DNA from: a virus
Lineage: Duplodnaviria; Heunggongvirae; Uroviricota; Caudoviricetes
Virus record (IMG/VR): IMGVR_UViG_2667527839_000010
DNA length: 14,104 nt
Strand: one strand, 5' to 3'
In this document: piece by piece, positions 2,308 to 11,735 of the stretch
Layout of the letters: every line of letters starts with the position of its first letter
Numbering within the stretch: the first letter of the stretch is position 1
The notes under the pieces: generated by a model
The model's input: only the letters and a program-made list of their open reading frames with translations
The model's database searches: none
Told to the model about the DNA's origin: nothing
Made by a program: the position numbers and the translations under genes

Positions 2308-2538
2308 ATGGAATATGCAAACAGCTTTTCAGATAATCAGACTCTTATCTCAGCAAAAGAGGTCTTAAGACGCGTTCAGCGTAGCAAGGCATGGCTTTAC
2401 AAACAGCTTGCAAACAATACATTTCCCCGTCCGGTGAAAATAGGAACTCGTGCAATTTCATTTGTTGAAAGCGAAGTTGATCACTGGATTCAAGAGCAAA
2501 TATATGCCTCTCGTGGTGAGCGATATGAAAATCACTAA
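2308..2538 (+). CDS. alpA: AlpA/Vis-family small DNA-binding regulator (excisionase-like), 76 aa
   Basis: MEYANSFSDNQTLISAKEVLRRVQRSKAWLYKQLANNTFPRPVKIGTRAISFVESEVDHWIQEQI matches the AlpA/Vis HTH pattern. ATG 2308 preceded by ACGGAG (2295-2300). The ORF track start at 2263 lacks an RBS and lies in AT-rich promoter DNA. Confidence 0.8.
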   Translation: MEYANSFSDNQTLISAKEVLRRVQRSKAWLYKQLANNTFPRPVKIGTRAISFVESEVDHWIQEQIYASRGERYENH

Positions 2539-2543
2539 TAAAA

Positions 2544-2571
2544 AAGCCCGACATAATGAATTTGTGGGCTT
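2544..2571. terminator. Hairpin between convergent alpA and the RHH gene, flanked by A/T runs
   Basis: aagccc (2544-2549) pairs with gggctt (2566-2571), with partial extension; the A-run at 2538-2543 reads as a T-run on the minus strand, so it most plausibly terminates the minus-strand RHH transcript. Confidence 0.4.
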
Positions 2572-2634
2572 AAAAATATTGTCGCTTACTGAAATTAACA
2601 TGGAAACAGAGAGAACGTCTGTTGGCTTCTCTAT

Positions 2635-2820
2635 TCAACTTCCTTGCTCTGGCTTATTTTTCCTGCGCTGTCGGCGTTTAATCTCGCCTTTTACAGCCGT
2701 AACAATGAATTGCGCTTTCGTTTCTCCATCTTCAAGGTTGCTTTCTAATTCTGCAACTACATCATGTGGGAAACGAGCATTAAGTTGCTGCGACTTGTTG
2801 TTAGTTGAACTCGTTGCCAT
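2635..2820 (-). CDS. Small ribbon-helix-helix (Arc/MetJ/CopG-like) DNA-binding protein, 61 aa
   Basis: MATSSTNNKSQQLNARFPHDVVAELESNLEDGETKAQFIVTAVKGEIKRRQRRKNK: short beta-strand (LNARFPHDVV) followed by two helices, basic tail. Strong SD on minus strand (AGGAG, 8 nt before ATG at 2820). Confidence 0.55.
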   Translation of the reverse strand: MATSSTNNKSQQLNARFPHDVVAELESNLEDGETKAQFIVTAVKGEIKRRQRRKNKPEQGS

Positions 2821-2841
2821 TACTGGATCTCCTCGCGTTAG

Positions 2842-2931
2842 GTGCGATTCAGTATATGCAAAAAAAATGATAATAAAAAGCTTGAAGTGCGATTCACTTA
2901 AGGGTAGCTTTAAAATTAAAGGTGCGATTCA
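2842..2931 (+). promoter_or_regulatory. Three direct repeats of GTGCGATTCA in the divergent promoter region (putative operator/iteron)
   Basis: GTGCGATTCA at 2842-2851, 2887-2896 and 2922-2931 (extended consensus aGGTGCGATTCAc), 22-110 bp upstream of the RHH start and upstream of the early operon. Confidence 0.5.
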
Positions 2932-3007
2932 CCTTGTGAGTGCGAAGCCCGACAGTGCAGCAACACTAACCGGGCTTCTGACCAATCCGCTAAATGAGGT
3001 AACGAAG

Positions 3008-3184
3008 ATGGCTAAACAGAAGTGTACCTGGTTATTTGCGGCGATCAACCGCAGTCAACGCAATGCCCGTCCTGTGATGTTAAGGATCACCGCAGATAAC
3101 GAGCGGTCAGCGCGGCGCAGACTTGCCCCGGACTATGTACTGAGCTTTGCCGGGCGCATTCCCTGCGGAGGTGAACATGCGTAA
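3008..3184 (+). CDS. Possible small leader ORF (58 aa) of the early operon
   Basis: ATG 3008 with GAGG at 2996-2999; its stop (TAA 3182-3184) overlaps the next start (ATG 3177), suggesting coupling. This is the only credible part of ORF-track 2450-3184, which is otherwise antisense to the RHH gene. No motif recognised. Confidence 0.3.
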   Translation: MAKQKCTWLFAAINRSQRNARPVMLRITADNERSARRRLAPDYVLSFAGRIPCGGEHA

Positions 3185-3536
3185 TTATCCGCACCCCGGC
3201 GAACGCTGGCAGCATGAACGTGGCTGGACGGTCACGATTATCCGATTAATAGAAGCCTCGCCCTCTGTGGCGCTGGTTAATCCTGAATTCAGCTGTGAAG
3301 TGCTGATACGTCATGACAGCGACAACCAGCTTTCTTCCTGCCCTCTGGCATGGTTTGAACAGCGGTATACGCGCCTGTTTGATGTACCGCTCTTGAAGCC
3401 TGCACCAGCTCCTGCTGGCGGTAGTGGTTCCGGCCCGCTGACACTGCATCCGTCTGTGCTATTTATCCGCTGGCGGGAGCGTAGCATACGGCGTTCTGCT
3501 GAGCCTGACGACGGTCACTATTCAAAGTTTCTCTGA
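3177..3536 (+). CDS. Hypothetical protein (119 aa), early operon
   Basis: ATG 3177 preceded by GGAGGTG (3167-3173). The track start at 3147 is a TTG without RBS. No family assigned. Confidence 0.6.
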   Translation: MRNYPHPGERWQHERGWTVTIIRLIEASPSVALVNPEFSCEVLIRHDSDNQLSSCPLAWFEQRYTRLFDVPLLKPAPAPAGGSGSGPLTLHPSVLFIRWRERSIRRSAEPDDGHYSKFL

Positions 3537-3567: not shown

Positions 3568-3852
3568 ATGAATATTTCAAACGGGCACAACGGTGCTCAG
3601 GGCCACACTTTGCCTGAAAAACACAATACCGGTGCTTTTGCCTATGGGTTGTCAGAGGACAGTTTCGGAAAACTGACCCGCGCAAGAAATGCCTGCGACA
3701 TGCTCCAGCTTCTCTTTTCTGAATACCCGTCTCAGGCCGGAGCACTGGACGCTGGCTGTGCGCATGGTGTCGCCGCGCTGATGGAGTACCTGCTGGCAGA
3801 TTTGACGGATATTGCACACAGCTGCGCACTGATTGAAGGAGGTGCCAGATGA
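3568..3852 (+). CDS. Hypothetical protein (94 aa), early operon
   Basis: ATG 3568 with GGAG at 3555-3558; stop overlaps the next start (ATGA at 3849-3852). Confidence 0.65.
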   Translation: MNISNGHNGAQGHTLPEKHNTGAFAYGLSEDSFGKLTRARNACDMLQLLFSEYPSQAGALDAGCAHGVAALMEYLLADLTDIAHSCALIEGGAR

Positions 3853-4232
3853 ACCAGCCGCAGGTTTCCATTTTCCCGGCAGAAATGACCACCGCGCTTT
3901 ACCGGCGGGCTATTGCTTCAGCATGGCGGCAGAAAATGCTGAACGAAACTGGCAGTGATCAGTATGGTCCTCACAGCCTGACGGTGGAGCGTATTGAAAT
4001 GGCCATTGCGCTGCATATCGAGTGCGTACTGATTAACGAGTACGGCGAAGCACAGGGCGCCGCTGCCGCGCTGGCACTGCTGACTGACATGCTGGAGCCG
4101 TCACTGCTGACCGCGCCGCCGGTACTGACCGCGCGCGGCTGTGAAGTGATGGCGGAGATGTACCGCACGCTTCCGGCGGCCTTTGATGACTTCTGCAGTA
4201 CCGGTGTGACGTTGTATCAGGGGGAAGTATGA
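3849..4232 (+). CDS. Hypothetical protein (127 aa), early operon immediately upstream of the primase
   Basis: ATG 3849 preceded by AGGAGG; stop overlaps the primase start (ATGA at 4229-4232). Confidence 0.65.
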   Translation: MNQPQVSIFPAEMTTALYRRAIASAWRQKMLNETGSDQYGPHSLTVERIEMAIALHIECVLINEYGEAQGAAAALALLTDMLEPSLLTAPPVLTARGCEVMAEMYRTLPAAFDDFCSTGVTLYQGEV

Positions 4233-6901
4233 CAATACAGACGGTTACGCAGATTTCAGCTGCCGCACGGGGGAAATGGCCCGTTATTCTCCAGATGCTG
4301 CGTATTGATGTACCTGAAAACGGCAGGCACGGTCCCTGCCCGAAATGTGGGGGCAAGGATCGTTTTCGCCTTGATGACCTTGACGGGCGCGGGACGTGGA
4401 TCTGCAGCCAGTGTGGCAATGGTGACGGTCTGGATCTGGTTAAGCTCGTAACCGGTTACAGCGTCAGAAAGGCTGCGCAGGAGGTGGCGCAGGTGCTTAA
4501 TGTGCCGGATGTGCAGGAACTGCCTGTTAAGCCTGCCAGACAAAAAGCCCCTAAACGCGACATGGGGCTTACCGTGGCGGCGCTGATGAAAGAGAGCCAC
4601 ACGGGAGAAAGCGCCTATCTGACAGGAAAAGGGTTCGCCGGATACCCGGCCTCTCTGACCGGAAGCGTGCAGCATATCAGCGGTAAGGATTTTCCTGCCG
4701 GTTCCCTGCTGTTACCACTCACGACCAACACCGGAGCCGTGACTGGTGCACAGCTTATCGCCCCGACGGGTGAAAAAAGCATACTGCCCGGCAGCACGAT
4801 GAAAGGCGCGTTTGTGTCGCTCAGCCCGTTACCGTCTGAACCACCGGTACAGGTGGTGATTACCGAAGGTTACGCTACGGCGCTGACGGTAAGTCAGCTC
4901 ACTGCCGGATGCGTAGTGGCTGCCATATCTGCGGGCAACCTGCCCAATGTGGCGCAGTCGCTGCGGGCACGCTGGCCTGAGGTAAAAATTATCATCGCCG
5001 GTGATAACGATTTTCAGGACGGAGGTGAGAATCCCGGCAGAGCCTTTGCTGAACGGGCGGCAAAAGCTGTTGGCGGCTGGATGACGCTGCCACCGGGAGA
5101 GATTAAGGCCGACTGGAATGACTTCCATCGGGAGCACGGTATTACCCGCGCCCGTGAAGCCTTTCGTAACGGTCTGGTGCTGTGCGGGGAGGGCCGCACG
5201 CAACTGCCGCACGGGTTCCGTCTTACCCAGGAATATCTCTGGTATGAAAAGCAGGTACAGCGCAACGGTGAGACGGAGATCCAGAACGTCAAAATATGCA
5301 GCCCGCTGCGCGTGACGGCAATCACCTGCGATGCCGATGGCGGTAACTTCGGACGACTGCTGGAATGGGAAGATACGTGGGGTGAGTGTCGCCGCTGGGC
5401 GATGCCGATGGAAATGCTGAGCGGCAGTGGTGAGGAACTGCGCCGGGTACTGCTGGTTAACGGGCTGTCTTATATCAGCACCACCGGTGAGGCACGCGCA
5501 CGCCTGATGGAATATATCTCACTGTGTAAACCGGAACGCCGCGTGACCTGCGTCAGTCGTACTGGCTGGCATGGTCAGGTTTACGTCCTGCAGGATGAGG
5601 TCAGCGGTGAAGGTGCAGAGGGTGTCATTCTCCAGACCACTTCCGTGCAGGGGCGTGATTTCCGCGTGTCGGGCACAACAGAGGAATGGCGGGAGCATGT
5701 ATCCCGCTACTGTACCGGCAACTCCCGCGTGGCATTTGCTGTCAGCCTGGCCTTTGCTGCACCACTGTTACGGCTGGTTGGTATGGACGGCGGCGGCTAC
5801 CACCTCAAAGGGGAATCGACAGACGGTAAGACCACCACCATGAAAGCAGCAACCTCCGTCTGCGGCGGGCCTGACTACTGGCAGACATGGCGGGCCACCG
5901 GCAACGCGCTGGAGGGATGCGCCAGCCGCCGCAACGATGCCGCCATGATGCTTGATGAGATCCGGGAAGTTGACGGACGCGAGGCAGGCAATATCGCCTA
6001 CATGCTGGCAAACGGTCAGGGCAAGGGCCGTGCCGGTACGGACGGTGAGCTGCGTACCCGTAAGCAGTGGCGCCTGTTGTTCTTTTCAACTGGCGAGTTG
6101 TCTCTGACCGAACATGCGGCAAAGGCCGGTGAGCGTACTTTTGCCGGGATGGAAGTCAGGATGATCCAGATCCCCAGCGATTCCGGGAAGTTTGGCGTTT
6201 TTGAGGAGCTGCACGGCTTCGACAGCGGCAAGGCTCTGGCAGAGCATCTTGAATGGGCCACGTCCTGCTACTACGGTTCGCCGTTCCGGGAGTGGCTGAA
6301 AGCACTGACCGCTGATCTTAACGGACTAACGGCACAGGCAAAATCGCTGATGAAGGAATATGCTGCCGCCCTGACTCCGAAAGATGCAGGCAATCAGGTG
6401 GGCCGGGCTGTGAACCGCTTTGCTCTGGTGGCGATGGCAGGTGAACTGGCAACCCGTCTGGGTATCACCGGCTGGCCTGAGGGTGAAGCACTGCGGGCAA
6501 CCCGCGTCTGCCTGAACGCATGGCTGAAAGATCGCGGGCACACCGCCAATCAGGAAGATATCGCCGCACTGGAGCAGGTTCGCAGTTTCTTTACCGCGAA
6601 TCAGTACAGCCGCTTTGCAGACTGGTATGACGAGCGCAACCGCCCCGGCAATATGGTGGGCTGGCGCAGGGTGGAGAAAGGCAGTACCGCGCAGGGCACG
6701 GAAGCTGTCACTACGTTCTATGTCATGCCGTCCGGCTGGAAAGAAATCTGCAGGGGATTTGACCCGCGCAAGGTGGCGCGTCTGTGCGCAGATCGTGGAT
6801 ACCTGCTGCCCTCCACTGATGGCAAACTCCAGACAACCATTCGCCCGCCAGAGATGAATCCCCGCAGGCTCTATGTCTTCAACAGCGAGGTGCCGGGTTA
6901 A
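4229..6901 (+). CDS. Replication primase-helicase, P4 alpha-like (zinc ribbon + TOPRIM + Walker A/B NTPase), 890 aa
   Basis: N-terminal CPKCGGKDRF...WICSQCG (CxxC..CxxC); TOPRIM-like VVITEGYATALTV and IIIAGDNDFQDGG; Walker A HLKGESTDGKTTTM and Walker B-like MMLDEIREV. Uniform coding-like composition over 2.7 kb; internal antisense ORFs are shadows. Confidence 0.9.
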   Translation: MTIQTVTQISAAARGKWPVILQMLRIDVPENGRHGPCPKCGGKDRFRLDDLDGRGTWICSQCGNGDGLDLVKLVTGYSVRKAAQEVAQVLNVPDVQELPVKPARQKAPKRDMGLTVAALMKESHTGESAYLTGKGFAGYPASLTGSVQHISGKDFPAGSLLLPLTTNTGAVTGAQLIAPTGEKSILPGSTMKGAFVSLSPLPSEPPVQVVITEGYATALTVSQLTAGCVVAAISAGNLPNVAQSLRARWPEVKIIIAGDNDFQDGGENPGRAFAERAAKAVGGWMTLPPGEIKADWNDFHREHGITRAREAFRNGLVLCGEGRTQLPHGFRLTQEYLWYEKQVQRNGETEIQNVKICSPLRVTAITCDADGGNFGRLLEWEDTWGECRRWAMPMEMLSGSGEELRRVLLVNGLSYISTTGEARARLMEYISLCKPERRVTCVSRTGWHGQVYVLQDEVSGEGAEGVILQTTSVQGRDFRVSGTTEEWREHVSRYCTGNSRVAFAVSLAFAAPLLRLVGMDGGGYHLKGESTDGKTTTMKAATSVCGGPDYWQTWRATGNALEGCASRRNDAAMMLDEIREVDGREAGNIAYMLANGQGKGRAGTDGELRTRKQWRLLFFSTGELSLTEHAAKAGERTFAGMEVRMIQIPSDSGKFGVFEELHGFDSGKALAEHLEWATSCYYGSPFREWLKALTADLNGLTAQAKSLMKEYAAALTPKDAGNQVGRAVNRFALVAMAGELATRLGITGWPEGEALRATRVCLNAWLKDRGHTANQEDIAALEQVRSFFTANQYSRFADWYDERNRPGNMVGWRRVEKGSTAQGTEAVTTFYVMPSGWKEICRGFDPRKVARLCADRGYLLPSTDGKLQTTIRPPEMNPRRLYVFNSEVPG

Positions 6902-6933: not shown

Positions 6934-7123
6934 CAGGTGAAACAGGTGGAACAACCGTATTTTACAGGGCTGAACCTGTTCCACCTTCTGAAATAGTGAG
7001 GTGGAACAGATGTAACGCCAGCCAATCCGCTGTTCCACCTTGTTACCCGCGATGTTCCACCGGTGCAGTGTATATAAATGCCTTATAAAACAAAGCTGTA
7101 ACACATGTTTCATCTGTTCCACC
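6934..7123. repeat. Iteron cluster: six perfect copies of TGTTCCACC in both orientations (putative ori/crr for the primase-helicase)
   Basis: TGTTCCACC at 6977-6985, 7031-7039, 7053-7061, 7115-7123; its complement GGTGGAACA at 6945-6953 and 7000-7008; degenerate copies at 6934-6944 and 7041-7048. Lies immediately 3' of the primase gene. Confidence 0.6.
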
Positions 7124-7301: not shown

Positions 7302-8045
7302 ATGAACAACACCGCAGTGAATAACAACCTTTCCACTTTTCCGGCTGTAACGCAGCGGGCACTGGAAACCATGAACACAGCCAGAAACGCATGGCTTGAA
7401 GCACGTCGTCAGCAGAAAGCGGCAGCGGATAATATTGCGACAATCCGCCAGCGTCGCGCTGAAATGGAAGCCACGACGAACACACTGAATGAGGAGTGGC
7501 GCACGCTGTTTCGTGAAAGTCAGGGCGTGGTCTCAAAGGAAATGAAAAAACTGCGCACGGAAATTGCGCTGGGACGAGAAACGCTTGAGGATTTTGATGA
7601 GCTGCTGGCGGCTCAGGAAAGCGAAAATGCACTTTTGCCGCAGAAAGCTGCAGAATTAGCCGGAAAGTATATCCACGCGCATAACATTCTTGTGGATATT
7701 CGCGCAAAACAAATCTGGGAGGATTTTATGCAGTCGCATGGAAAAGCGCTTATTCAGACGCTGAGCCTGCTTAAATCCACAATGGGCCGGGAAGCCAGTG
7801 CCGTTGTGGGTGTGGTGAATTCAGTTAATGACCCGGACACAGTGCTGAAAGACTTTATTCATAAACATATCACCAGACCGGCTCTGGCTAACGATGCGAT
7901 GCCTGAGCAGGACCCGGTGTTTAAACTGGCGGGAGTTGCCCCGGATTATGCGGCGCGTCTGGATTTCAGTAATCAACTCTCTCCGGCAGCTATGCATAAA
8001 ATTAAGGTTCGTCAGGAACTTGCTGAGAAGGAGAAAGCAGTATGA
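7302..8045 (+). CDS. sid: Sid-like (P4 external scaffold / size-determination family), 247 aa
   Basis: ATG 7302 with AGGAG at 7292-7296. Size close to P4 Sid; shares N-terminal and central motifs with the Psu-like gene that follows (NAWLEARRQQKAA..., EDFMQSHGKALIQTL), consistent with the Sid/Psu paralogy. Family assignment is from remembered motifs and context, not alignment. Confidence 0.55.
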   Translation: MNNTAVNNNLSTFPAVTQRALETMNTARNAWLEARRQQKAAADNIATIRQRRAEMEATTNTLNEEWRTLFRESQGVVSKEMKKLRTEIALGRETLEDFDELLAAQESENALLPQKAAELAGKYIHAHNILVDIRAKQIWEDFMQSHGKALIQTLSLLKSTMGREASAVVGVVNSVNDPDTVLKDFIHKHITRPALANDAMPEQDPVFKLAGVAPDYAARLDFSNQLSPAAMHKIKVRQELAEKEKAV

Positions 8046-8593
8046 CGGCCCGAGGCACGCCTGACCAGGCACTTACCAGTTTTCGGAATGCCCGTATTCT
8101 GTGGGCCGGACATAATGAGAGCCGAAAAGCCATTGAACAACAGATAACATCTCTCCTCGCTGCCACAGAAAAACCAGCAGATTATGCCCGACAGCTCGAA
8201 TTACTGCGGGAACGTCTGGATGTGCTGAAATGGCAAATTAACTGTGCTGCGCGCGAATGCATTTACTCGCAGCATTTACTGATGGAGGCCTGCACAGAAG
8301 CCGCTCTCAGCAATTTTATGCAGGCGAATGGGGCAGCCCTGACATCTGCACTGGCTCCGTTCCTGAAGGGGCGCGGAGGGGTTGACGTTGCGTCCCGTAT
8401 ATTACGCAGTGCTCTGGTTCGCCAGCTGGCAATAACACCGCCTGAAATTGCCGGGGATTATCGTGAGATCCTGGATGAATCCGGTTTGATGCCTGACCCC
8501 GGGATGATTCGTGATTGCCAGGGTTCTTACACCCCGGCACAACATCTGCGTTTTCAGCAACGCCTGAATGACATTAACGATATACAGGAGTGA
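8042..8593 (+). CDS. psu: Psu-like (polarity suppression / capsid decoration family), 183 aa
   Basis: Start overlaps the Sid-like stop (ATGA at 8042-8045). Motifs LELLRERLDVLKWQINCAARECIYS, FMQANGAALTSALAP and YTPAQHLRFQQR resemble P4 Psu as I recall it. Confidence 0.6.
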   Translation: MTARGTPDQALTSFRNARILWAGHNESRKAIEQQITSLLAATEKPADYARQLELLRERLDVLKWQINCAARECIYSQHLLMEACTEAALSNFMQANGAALTSALAPFLKGRGGVDVASRILRSALVRQLAITPPEIAGDYREILDESGLMPDPGMIRDCQGSYTPAQHLRFQQRLNDINDIQE

Positions 8594-8598
8594 TATTA

Positions 8599-8871
8599 AT
8601 GGCACTTAAATGTCCGGAATGCGGTACAGTTGCACACGCCAGAACAGCAGCCTATGAAGCTCCGTCAGTTAAACGCTCGTGGTATCAGTGCCAGAATCTG
8701 GAATGTTCCTGCACATTTACGGCACTGGAGAGTGTGGATAAGATAATCATGAAACCCCGGCGCAATGAACAGCTATCAGACAAAGCACAATCCCCGGAAA
8801 AACAACAGAAAACGCTCAATCGCTATGGCTCCGCGTCAAAACTGTCAAGCCGTCAGCAGATTCCTGTCTGA
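8599..8871 (+). CDS. ogr: Ogr/Delta-family zinc-finger late transcription activator, 90 aa
   Basis: MALKCPECGTVAHARTAAYEAPSVKRSWYQCQNLECSCTF has the CxxC-N22-CxxC arrangement and HART/YQCQN signature of P2 Ogr / P4 Delta. ATG 8599 with AGGAG (8586-8590); the track GTG at 8590 overlaps the Psu-like stop. Confidence 0.85.
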   Translation: MALKCPECGTVAHARTAAYEAPSVKRSWYQCQNLECSCTFTALESVDKIIMKPRRNEQLSDKAQSPEKQQKTLNRYGSASKLSSRQQIPV

Positions 8872-9498: not shown

Positions 9499-10485
9499 GT
9501 GAGTGATTCTGCATATATGAATGCATTACAAGAGCAGTTTGGAGATTTGAAATATTCAAATTTCACTGTTCAGTTCATGCCTCCTATTATTTTTGTTTGT
9601 GGTGGGCCGATAAATTCCACTCCAATGAGTGTACGAGACCACATATTTACTTATGTAGCAGGCCACAAACCTGAATTGTCAGATTCTCTTATTTTAGCTG
9701 AGAACTTCCATGACTACTTCAGAGAGGGGGCATATTCAGATCTAATGAGCTTTGAAGATGATATTGCAAATATTTCAACATTAGTTGTTATCTGTTTAGA
9801 AAGTGCAGGTTCGTTAGTTGAGCTTGGATTATTTGTTAATAGGAAGTCTCTAGCTCAAAAATTGCATGTAGTCGCACCATTTGAGGAGATTGAGGGAAAT
9901 GAACGAAAAAATATTCCTGCTAGATCTTCTTTTATATATTTAGGCCCTTTGGAGTATCTTAAAAAAATAGATGAGGCCTCAGTATCAGTTTATCCATGGC
10001 CAAAATCGGATCGTATGAAATATGATGAGGTTGAGCTTATCTACCATGATATTCATTCTAGATTAAAACGTGTAAAAAAAACGGAGCGATATAACCCTGA
10101 AAATACTGGGCACCTAGCTATATTGATTTACGAAATAATCCTTTTATCAGAACCAATCAAGAAAAGCGAAATAGAGTGGGCACTATACTGTATGGATATA
10201 GATGTGCCACAAAAAATAATATCTCGTTTACTTTATTTGCTTGAAAAGATGAAATTAACCTCATCATTATCTTACAGTGGTACAGACTACTTTTATTCCC
10301 GAGGGCATAGAGAGAGTAAACTTAAATTTGGTATCAGTGCTAGTGGTAAAATAAAGGATTCTATGAATATTAAGGTTGCAATCCGACAATCTTACTTAAG
10401 TATGGATGCTAAAGATATGGACGAGACTGCAAAAAAAAGGAAAAATGCTCTAAATCAAATCAATATCGTGCGTGGAGGGGCTTAG
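9499..10485 (+). CDS. Retron effector: nucleoside 2-deoxyribosyltransferase-like (NDT-like) domain protein with a C-terminal putative DNA-binding region, 328 aa
   Basis: N-terminal PIIFVCGGP and STLVVICLESAGSLVELGLFV fit the NDT fold (Rossmann-like strand, then a conserved Glu in a VELG context); C-terminal half is a separate, helix-rich region. GTG start at 9499 with GGAG/AGGGGG upstream; alternative ATG at 9517. Stop TAG 10483-10485 abuts the RT start. Confidence 0.8.
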   Translation: MSDSAYMNALQEQFGDLKYSNFTVQFMPPIIFVCGGPINSTPMSVRDHIFTYVAGHKPELSDSLILAENFHDYFREGAYSDLMSFEDDIANISTLVVICLESAGSLVELGLFVNRKSLAQKLHVVAPFEEIEGNERKNIPARSSFIYLGPLEYLKKIDEASVSVYPWPKSDRMKYDEVELIYHDIHSRLKRVKKTERYNPENTGHLAILIYEIILLSEPIKKSEIEWALYCMDIDVPQKIISRLLYLLEKMKLTSSLSYSGTDYFYSRGHRESKLKFGISASGKIKDSMNIKVAIRQSYLSMDAKDMDETAKKRKNALNQINIVRGGA

Positions 10486-10486
10486 A

Positions 10487-11419
10487 ATGGAGTTGCTAAG
10501 TTATATTTCAAAAGGTCTTTTTCTTAGCGAAGAAGAGGCTAAAAGGTATATTGTTACTATTCCACGCAGATATAAAATTTATCCTATCGCCAAAAGAAAT
10601 GGTAATGGATATAGATTAATTGCACAACCAGCTAGGCAAGTTAAAGCCTTACAGAAGGTAGTAATCAATCATATGTTGGCTAATTTGAAAGTTCATGAAA
10701 ATGCTTTCGCTTATGAAGCCGATAAAAGTATTAGATCTAATGCGTTAATGCATTGTAATAATGATTATTTGCTTAAAATGGATTTTAAAAACTTTTTTAT
10801 GAGTATCAAACCCCATAATCTTTTATCTGTCTTAAAAGATTATGGCGTTGAACTAACTGATACTGATATCTTTGTTCTTAAAAATCTTTTCTTCTGGAAG
10901 TTAAGAAGAAATAGCCCATTACGCCTAAGTGTTGGAGCACCTTCTTCTCCCATTATTTCAAATGCAGTAATGTATTTCTTCGATGAGGAAATATCGAAAA
11001 GATGCAAGGATTTGGATATTACCTACTCAAGGTATGCTGATGATCTTACGTTTAGCACCAAAGTCAAAGGAGCTTTATTTGATGTTCCTAAGTTAGTAAG
11101 GGAAGTTCTTAACGTAGTAAATCTTAGGAATATTAAAATAAACCATGAGAAAACAGTTTTTACCTCAAGGAAGTTTAATAGACATGTAACTGGTGTAACT
11201 ATTACGACTGATGGTTATTTGTCTTTAGGTCGTGATAGAAAGCGTCTTTTAAGAAGTAAAATACATTATTACGTGTGTGGGGTTTTATCTGAGAAAGAAA
11301 TTCTAACCCTTAAAGGAGAATTAGGCTATGCGAAATTTATTGAACATAAATTCTTTACCTCCATGATTAAGAAATATGGGGATGATGTAATCAGCGAAAT
11401 TTCAAAATATGAAATTTAA
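10487..11419 (+). CDS. ret: Retron-type reverse transcriptase, 310 aa from ATG 10487 (315 aa if GTG 10472)
   Basis: Retron RT motifs: YRLIAQPARQVKALQKVV; LLKMDFKNFFMSI (cf. DxxxFFPSI); SVGAPSSPIISNAVMYFFD (cf. QGAPTSP); YSRYADDLTFS (YADD); NHEKT; VTGVTIT (retron-specific VTG). GGAGG at 10474-10478 precedes ATG 10487. AT-rich composition matches the effector gene. Confidence 0.9.
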   Translation: MELLSYISKGLFLSEEEAKRYIVTIPRRYKIYPIAKRNGNGYRLIAQPARQVKALQKVVINHMLANLKVHENAFAYEADKSIRSNALMHCNNDYLLKMDFKNFFMSIKPHNLLSVLKDYGVELTDTDIFVLKNLFFWKLRRNSPLRLSVGAPSSPIISNAVMYFFDEEISKRCKDLDITYSRYADDLTFSTKVKGALFDVPKLVREVLNVVNLRNIKINHEKTVFTSRKFNRHVTGVTITTDGYLSLGRDRKRLLRSKIHYYVCGVLSEKEILTLKGELGYAKFIEHKFFTSMIKKYGDDVISEISKYEI

Positions 11420-11664
11420 TAGCTTGTTGTCCTAATAAATCAGCATGACTTTATCTAGCTTGCGCAAGGTTGGTTCAGAGGTTTGGTTGTTCTGGTTAGG
11501 CTCTGTAAGACGGAACCTAACTAGGCAACTCTATCTTGCTAATTCATTTATTGTGCTAGTTAGCAACAATAAGATTTTGTTGGGGGCACAAAATGGGGCA
11601 CAAGTCATAAGCTATAAAATTTTTATCATCATGTTCAATGAGTTATATAGTTATTCTATTCCGG

Positions 11665-11696
11665 CCTTCGCACCTTCGCACCTTCGCACCTTCGCA
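11665..11696. repeat. Perfect tandem repeat (CCTTCGCA)x4 within a tRNA-Leu 3'-end-like sequence (putative degenerate attR)
   Basis: ccttcgca at 11665-11672, 11673-11680, 11681-11688, 11689-11696, preceded by ttctattccgg and followed by ccatcgg. The context TTCtAtTCCGGCCTTCG-CACC...A resembles the 3' end of E. coli tRNA-Leu(CAA) leuX (..TTCGAGTCCGGCCTTCGGCACCA) as I remember it. Confidence 0.85.
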
Positions 11697-11712
11697 CCAT
11701 CGGAACATCAAT

Positions 11713-11735
11713 AGACGTCAACGGACGTTTTTTTT
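11713..11735 (+). terminator. Short hairpin plus T8 run downstream of the retron/att region
   Basis: acgtc (11715-11719) / gacgt (11724-11728), 4-nt loop, then 8 T (11728-11735). The stem is short, so confidence is moderate. Confidence 0.4.

Follow-up and report, generated by a model that had tools for sequence, protein, structure and literature searches.

Comparative sequence analysis makes it likely that a 61-aa protein, encoded divergently from the replication operon of a P4-like satellite prophage of E. coli, acts as a sequence-specific repressor of the satellite's early region, and that its gene and three candidate operators together form a self-contained, immunity-like cassette. The satellite makes up the whole stretch of DNA analysed here (the window, 14.1 kb). 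A first-pass annotation had proposed that a ribbon-helix-helix (RHH) protein, or another regulator, binds repeats in this region and controls early genes. Comparison with related loci lends support to this proposal through the placement of the repeats, their footprint and their co-variation with the protein's predicted β-strand. In fact, every element of the earlier interpretation that could be tested computationally held. What the analysis adds is a candidate function for the uncharacterised YlcI/YnfO family and its apparent generality across Gram-negative satellites. The advance lies in this function assignment and generality and not in principle, since an RHH repressor acting on promoter operators is textbook. 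The literature that we searched contains no functional study of YlcI/YnfO and none on Icd-like proteins with repressors, nor does it describe an RHH regulator for P4-like elements or PICIs.

In the genome with an exact match to positions 2540–3200, a tRNA-Leu gene adjoins the element. This region of 661 bases is present in 333 of 5426 complete E. coli genomes (≥90% identity), and the phage collection holds no DNA match to it. The window encodes an integrase (1–1263), orf212 (1293–1931) between int and alpA, AlpA (2263–2538) and, on the minus strand, the 61-aa YlcI/YnfO-family gene (2635–2820). A 58-aa Icd-like gene (3008–3184, plus strand; NF033153, E = 5.5e-24) heads the putatively regulated operon, which continues through orf119 (3177–3536), orf94 (3568–3852) and DUF5375 (3849–4232) to a TOPRIM/DUF927 primase (4229–6901). 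This gapless operon, assigned from the ORF list and the annotation of the identical E. coli locus, ends at 6901 and is followed by a Sid-like gene (7302–8045), Psu (8042–8593), Delta (8590–8871) and a retron cargo (9499–11419). The obsolete P4 "cI gene product" ORF (L084, 8168–8584) has an Icd-like protein as its C-terminal part, with 54% identity to the window's. PHROG names Icd-like families "transcriptional repressor"; the label probably descends from the old P4 "cI protein" annotation and is therefore not to be trusted.

We note several features elsewhere on the element and its relatives. Four related islands carry the int-alpA RNA motif (Rfam RF02996; L003 9057–9125, L016 9113–9181, L062 6844–6914 and L079 6120–6185); Rfam did not find RF02996 in the window, where orf212 separates int from alpA. 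In E. coli 2017.15.01CC (L001, 6977–8392), an IS1A splits the orf212 homologue of an otherwise identical island. At 11665–11698, 3′ of the retron reverse transcriptase gene and within a small ORF (11445–11714), the 8-bp unit CCTTCGCA stands in tandem in slightly more than four copies.

The 61-aa ORF starts with ATG, preceded by 8 nt by a Shine–Dalgarno sequence (GGAG, 2829–2832, minus strand) that is kept in relatives. Its product is a member of NCBIfam NF041551 (YlcI/YnfO; 65.7 bits against a cut-off of 30, E = 2.8e-18, residues 9–50), RefSeq calls the identical protein YlcI/YnfO, and it also matches PHROG 949; neither family carries a known function. More than 100 homologues are spread across Enterobacterales, in Escherichia, Klebsiella, Salmonella, Citrobacter, Enterobacter, Pectobacterium, Dickeya, Yersinia, Proteus, Morganella, Hafnia, Xenorhabdus, Cronobacter and others. 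Strong purifying selection acts on the gene, with a dN/dS of 0.02–0.06 among members of the window's class, where dS is saturated. The first-pass annotation had called a minus-strand 61-aa gene here and tied its reading to conservation of that gene in relatives; family match, selection and homologues bear out both.

The predicted layout of the protein comprises a β-strand at about residues 9–17 (KSQQLNARF) and helices at 19–30 and 35–54. The AlphaFold model (pLDDT 71.6) has an extended N-terminus and the same two helices, and as modelled it matches the look of an RHH monomer without its partner. Alignment to P22 Arc with hhalign, using a hand-entered Arc sequence, gives E = 6.7e-4 at a probability of 27% and places Q12, N14 and R16 on the base-contacting Q9, N11 and R13 of that sequence, with a proline next in both. 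Some family members have sub-threshold Pfam matches to CB_ParB_C (seven members, best E 0.011) or PSK_trans_fac (three members, best E 0.0094). No Pfam RHH family (Arc included) reaches threshold, a PDB sequence-profile search was empty and Foldseek gave no match. Strand residues 11–14 change along with the repeat core in the five classes described below, as RHH specificity residues would. We consider the protein probably an Arc-like RHH DNA-binding protein, the evidence from fold being weak.

The repeat GTGCGATTCA occurs in exactly three copies in the window, at 2842–2851, 2887–2896 and 2922–2931, all on the plus strand and with start-to-start spacings of 45 and 35 bp, precisely the three identical direct repeats at about 35–45 bp that had been described before. 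No further copy with up to one mismatch is present anywhere in the window. A given 10-mer is expected by chance in about 0.03 exact copies in the 28 kb of both strands, and none of 300 windows from first-order Markov simulations contained any 10-mer three times inside 120 bp; the triple is not a chance cluster. Copies 1 and 3 have an extra G in common (GGTGCGATTCA), copies 2 and 3 an extra C (GTGCGATTCAC), and the latter pair are 13-bp pseudo-palindromes (aGTG-CGATT-CACt and GGTG-CGATT-CACC). The spacings of 45 and 35 bp correspond to 4.3 and 3.3 helical turns, so that the sites do not share one face of the helix; consequently, cooperative looping is not obvious.

The three repeats lie on two back-to-back promoters, P_L toward the RHH gene and P_R toward the operon, which we read as promoters from their hexamers and their conservation, with predicted starts; a strict consensus promoter scan did not list these hexamers. 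Column conservation was computed over the 17 non-redundant loci of the window's class (class 1). Candidate operator O1 (2842–2851, plus strand; conservation 0.99) covers the predicted leftward start near 2844. Since it abuts the P_L −10 box TATACT (2851–2856, minus strand; conservation 1.0), the leftward transcript should start inside it. The P_L −35 box is weak and A/T-rich, and in other classes the −10 box reads CATAAT or TATAAT. O1 stands 22 nt from the RHH ATG in at least 80 loci and is a candidate autoregulation site of the RHH gene. Candidate operator O2 (2887–2896, plus strand; conservation 1.0) occupies the 17-bp spacer of P_R, between the −35 box TTGAAG (2882–2887, plus strand; 0.97) and the putative −10 box TAGCTT (2905–2910, plus strand; 0.82), from which a start near 2917 is predicted. 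The distance from O2 to the RHH ATG is 67 nt in essentially all loci. In all classes TTGA(A/G/C)G is kept with TAnnnT 17 bp downstream (18 bp in EcCICFT073), and TAnnnT at 17-bp spacing stays conserved though the operator inside the spacer varies. Candidate operator O3 (2922–2931, plus strand; 0.98) would cover about +5 to +14 of P_R and extends to the pseudo-palindrome GGTGCGATTCACC (2921–2933). In relatives the distance of O3 from the RHH ATG is about 102 or 89 nt for direct copies and about 90 or 103 nt for inverted ones, and in compact variants O3 abuts the P_R −10 box.

The most conserved bases of the class-1 intergenic region are the repeats and two of the promoter hexamers. Conservation is 0.72 in the spacers inside and just after P_R and 0.87 in the A-rich tract from O1 to the −35 box, and the operators score 0.98–1.0 while the adjacent gene has dS ≥0.9. 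The earlier placement of the repeats in the early promoter region is thereby resolved to O1 on P_L and O2 and O3 on P_R, with conserved hexamers at each. The rightward leader would measure about 90 nt, and O1 and O2 fall outside the predicted rightward transcript.

At the distal end of the RHH gene, folds of both strands place an intrinsic terminator at 2538–2571 (minus strand), with a hairpin at about 2544–2571 followed by UUUUUU; the terminator part of a weak minus-strand Rfam match falls in the same interval. On the plus strand, that of the alpA transcripts, the 2544–2571 hairpin is followed by UUAAAAAU (region 2538–2576) and not by UUUUUU, which makes it a weak terminator for that strand. 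It is probably leaky in the alpA direction, and transcription from alpA may continue antisense into the repressor gene. A small antisense RNA ending at O3 (minus strand, AAGGTGAATCGCACCTT then TAATTTT, the sole site of the terminator scan) was considered and rejected, since relatives from Pectobacterium, Dickeya, Morganella and Proteus lack the T-run.

The divergent arrangement of small gene and replication operon, with sites on the operon promoter, is found in the window, in the 82 related loci of the comparison set (genomes, assemblies and viral contigs) and in EcCICFT073. In loci with intact repeats, the copies within a locus change in concert and in step with the β-strand of the protein, which yields five classes. 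In the window's class, the strand KSQQLNARFP goes with GTGCGATTCA. KSRQKTARV/IP is found with GTGGGAGTCA together with GTGCAAGTCA, and KSQQKTARV/IP with GTGG(C/T)GTTCA, again together with GTGCAAGTCA. KSQFMTARVP accompanies GTGTGTATCA, and KSQALKARVP, the strand of EcCICFT073, accompanies GTGGGCCACA and GTGGGGGACA. In some classes O1 differs from O2 and O3 by 2–4 bases. The repeats remain identical across genera despite saturation of the neighbouring synonymous sites.

As alternative specificity partners we tested AlpA, the Icd-like protein, the primase and the integrase, and rejected all four because none tracks the operator class. Icd-like variants that are 87–100% identical occur with both class-1 and class-3 cassettes (for example L043 and L048 versus L025 and L075, or L044, L046 and L047 versus L069–L072), and each primase type, D5 and DUF927, is found with several operator classes. 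Identical operators are found in loci where homologues of AlpA, integrase and primase are often undetectable, and the AlpA homologues that can be detected are 50–57% identical to the window's in three different operator classes. Between L043 and L025 the mosaic breakpoint falls directly after O3. From strand co-variation, independent assortment and this breakpoint, we conclude that the gene and the three sites recombine as one exchangeable specificity cassette. Comparable to the immunity regions of temperate phages, such a cassette is the expected signature of a repressor and its operators.

The cassette is also present in the model island EcCICFT073 (L086 8440–8860; E. coli CFT073, NC_004431 1380439–1380859). 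There, the YlcI/YnfO gene annotated by RefSeq (NC_004431 1380473–1380652) is divergent from an Icd-like gene, and repeats GTGGGGGACA, GTGGGCCACA and GTGGGCCACA lie on divergent promoters, with P_R reading TTGACG-18-TATAGT. The late locus tag C_RS30120 suggests that this gene was missing from the original annotation of the island.

In the mechanism that we infer, from the fold of the protein and the transcription starts to binding, the repression it would cause and its lifting, RHH dimers or dimers of dimers would bind each 10–13-bp site, with paired N-terminal β-strands entering the major groove through a polar face formed by Q12, N14 and R16. Binding may serve multiple roles: (I) occupation of O2 and O3 would exclude RNA polymerase from P_R or block it there, (II) the Icd-like-to-primase operon would consequently be off and the integrated satellite silent, and (III) occupation of O1 would set the repressor level via negative autoregulation. 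Over-expression of AlpA alone induces EcCICFT073 (PMC6092414), so repression by the 61-aa protein must be such that AlpA can override it. For derepression we offer a guess from the geometry of the locus, in which helper-induced alpA transcription would pass the weak plus-strand terminator at 2544–2571 and run antisense over the repressor gene into the early operon. A helper-encoded anti-repressor would be an alternative route.

Several other readings of the repeats have to be weighed. That they are chance, or a recent duplication without function, has only their small size in its favour and is refuted by conservation: besides the absence of any such cluster from the 300 simulations, the copies are identical across genera where neighbouring synonymous sites are saturated, and they change in concert within classes. 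A further reading, which we consider improbable, assigns the repeats to a different protein of the island or helper (AlpA, the Icd-like protein, an iteron-binding primase, or a helper factor of the Cox or Ogr kind) and leaves the adjacent small gene unrelated to them. AlpA is indeed a DNA-binding regulator of such islands (PMC6092414), the PHROG label points to the Icd-like families, and P4 origins use short iterons. However, the same operators accompany Icd-like proteins diverged beyond detection as well as primases of both the D5 and the DUF927 type, a given Icd-like or primase type can be found with different operators, the detectable AlpA homologues show the identities given above in three different operator classes, and the PHROG label is probably inherited from the obsolete P4 annotation. 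A helper or host factor would not account for five island-specific repeat classes. Nor do the GTGCGATTCA repeats behave as iterons, their class being independent of primase type, and the island has a separate P4-like iteron cluster at 6935–7123, located between the primase stop codon and the sid-like gene, with at least six iterons in both orientations (CTGTTCCACC / GGTGGAACAG). These resemble the P4 type-1 iteron CTGTTCACC/GGTGAACAG (8-bp annotated core TGTTCACC) found upstream of P4 sid, and the cluster is probably the replication origin. It is less improbable, and still unlikely, that the protein binds the repeats with a main role other than repression of the early operon, as an activator, an architectural or excision cofactor, or an autoregulator only. 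RHH proteins can activate (AmrZ is an example), YlcI/YnfO N-domains occur fused or adjacent to small-terminase genes (as at L025 5679–6041), a hint of functions in further DNA transactions, and EcCICFT073 responds to AlpA alone. Against this stand the sites in the −35/−10 spacer and at the start, which are classic occlusion positions, and the three-site layout on back-to-back promoters, kept in every class. To our knowledge no activator works from within a spacer except the MerR-type regulators, which are unrelated.

The element's kinship with P4 raises the further alternative that the repeats act in RNA, as leader targets of a complementary, processed CI/C4-like RNA that causes premature termination, in the manner of P4 seqA and seqC; we regard this as very improbable. 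The Icd-like first gene is homologous to the ORF after the P4 CI RNA, O3 would make a 5′ hairpin in the transcript and is the reverse complement of O1 and O2 in some relatives, and a conserved structured hairpin lies after O3. Yet Rfam finds no C4 (RF01695), c4-a1b1 (RF03163) or isrK (RF01394) at gathering score in the window, none in 2500–3300 even at E up to 10, and none above gathering scores in 12 diverse relatives. The same search is positive in P4 (C4 74.9 bits, isrK 60.8, c4-a1b1 44.1), where C4, the isrK-like match and the a1b1 targets lie upstream of the "cI" ORF with the Icd-like C-terminal part. By this search P4-type RNA immunity, which the first-pass annotation had called unsupported in its antisense-RNA form, is absent here. 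Its remark that no complementary sequence lies nearby also stands. No complement of the repeat with up to one mismatch exists anywhere in the window, and the sole near-complement, TGAATTGCGC at 2706–2715, has two mismatches, as expected by chance, and is explained by coding constraint, since it specifies A36-Q37-F38-I39, which are invariant in the 61-aa protein. Read as a G-U-tolerant complement, it was rejected on the same two grounds. With O1 and O2 upstream of where rightward transcription is predicted to start, and with O3 changing orientation between close relatives (which would make a "target" an "effector") and occurring at two positions, the repeats fit a DNA site and not an RNA target. 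Their co-variation with the β-strand of a protein argues in the same direction.

The hairpin of the early leader (2944–2984; GAAGCCCG / CGGGCTTC, with an inner AGTG/CACT stem) is always followed by C(T)TGACCA or CTAACCA. Over 32 loci, 10 of its 12 pairs show compensatory changes, and none of 500 shuffles reaches the observed score; its folding energy is −19.1 kcal/mol (z = −3.7). It matches no Rfam family. The minus strand also gave a weak SymR-like Rfam match (24.6 bits, cut-off 61), which was discarded because it reflects this hairpin only. The hairpin travels with the Icd-like operon and not with the repressor cassette, which weighs further against the RNA reading. It might be a processing site, a stabiliser, an attenuator or a protein-binding site.

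A DNA-bound repressor, the reading that we prefer, has parallels in known systems. Like Arc and Mnt of P22 (immI), the 61-aa protein is small and of putative RHH type, with the strand register Q-x-N-x-R followed by a proline, and in each case divergent promoters of a mobile element carry the operators, with probable autoregulation. Similarity to Arc is weak at the E-value and probability given above for the hand-entered sequence, and the Pfam Arc model is unmatched. Moreover, P22 Arc and Mnt have one 21-bp operator each, in contrast to three separate sites of 10–13 bp here, and they serve a phage antirepressor control region rather than a satellite. CopG of pMV158 binds a 13-bp pseudo-symmetric element on the promoter controlling a replication gene, and omega of pSM19035 binds short asymmetric repeats in direct or inverted orientation. 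The repeats recall both systems in being 13-bp pseudo-palindromes whose core is asymmetric and which are found in both orientations; however, sequence membership in either family is not detectable, and the sites here are dispersed (45 and 35 bp) and not contiguous arrays. The region takes the same place as P4 immunity, between an AlpA/Vis-like gene and an Icd-like ORF heading an epsilon/DUF5375/primase operon, and presumably has the same task of keeping the replication operon silent in the prophage. Unlike P4, whose processed CI RNA pairs with leader repeats, the window has an extra, oppositely oriented protein gene with putative DNA operators and a leader of about 90 nt, and no such RNA was found. 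The master repressors Stl and Rpr, from SaPIs and Gram-positive PICIs, are of the helix-turn-helix type; they are larger than the 61-aa protein and share no sequence relationship with it. Their genes are likewise divergent from the replication module, with sites in the shared intergenic region (PMC6092414). For Stl and Rpr, derepression by helper proteins is experimentally shown, whereas derepression here is a guess.

Phage satellites shape gene transfer, phage defence and virulence, and the retron is cargo of the window's own island. Silencing of P4 and of the staphylococcal islands is already understood. In contrast, the paper defining Gram-negative PICIs leaves the global repressor unclear and describes AlpA as activating EcCICFT073, and AlpA is the only regulator of these islands named in the literature (PMC6092414). 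A survey lists the YlcI/YnfO family as an accessory gene of capsid-forming PICIs. The present analysis offers a concrete repressor candidate for Gram-negative satellites, with predicted operators, promoters and specificity residues, in a cassette found in EcCICFT073 and in satellites of at least 12 enterobacterial genera. The natural operator classes would be expected to behave as immunity groups, and closely related satellites would meet one control problem by RNA (P4) or, putatively, by protein.

A wider proposal, which we put forward tentatively and rate as possible rather than probable, is that YlcI/YnfO proteins are the missing master repressors of Gram-negative satellites, in a branch of P4-like elements, in classical PICIs including EcCICFT073 and in capsid-forming PICIs, as part of a two-layer switch with AlpA. 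If so, YlcI/YnfO would take the part of the CI RNA in P4 and of Stl in SaPIs, with at least five specificity classes that do not cross-react and that satellites trade as a cassette of gene plus operators. In the two-layer induction, the helper would switch on AlpA transcription, which converges on the repressor gene and would silence or override the repressor. This would also explain why AlpA seemed the sole regulator in published reporter assays, which predate annotation of the small gene.

Some variants of the family and its sites are worth recording. A C-terminal helical extension marks the 103-aa variants of the protein (L062 4001–4312; P0080 and P0081). The L062 operators have partly degenerated and read GTGGTATTCA and TTGCGATTCA, with TGTGAATCG as an incomplete copy in inverted orientation. 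L081–L083 (about 4001–4090) encode only the first 28 residues of the repressor and retain exact copies of O1 and O2, and their O3 shows the one mismatch typical of the class (GTGCGATGCA); such islands may be in decay or derepressed. In the PICI-like island L025, just downstream of the repressor gene, the 120-aa protein at 5679–6041 matches both DUF3950 (YlcI/YnfO-type; weakly) and Terminase_2. This suggests that the same small DNA-binding domain has been reused beside small-terminase functions, as in the K-12 prophages, where ylcI pairs with nohD and ynfO with nohA.
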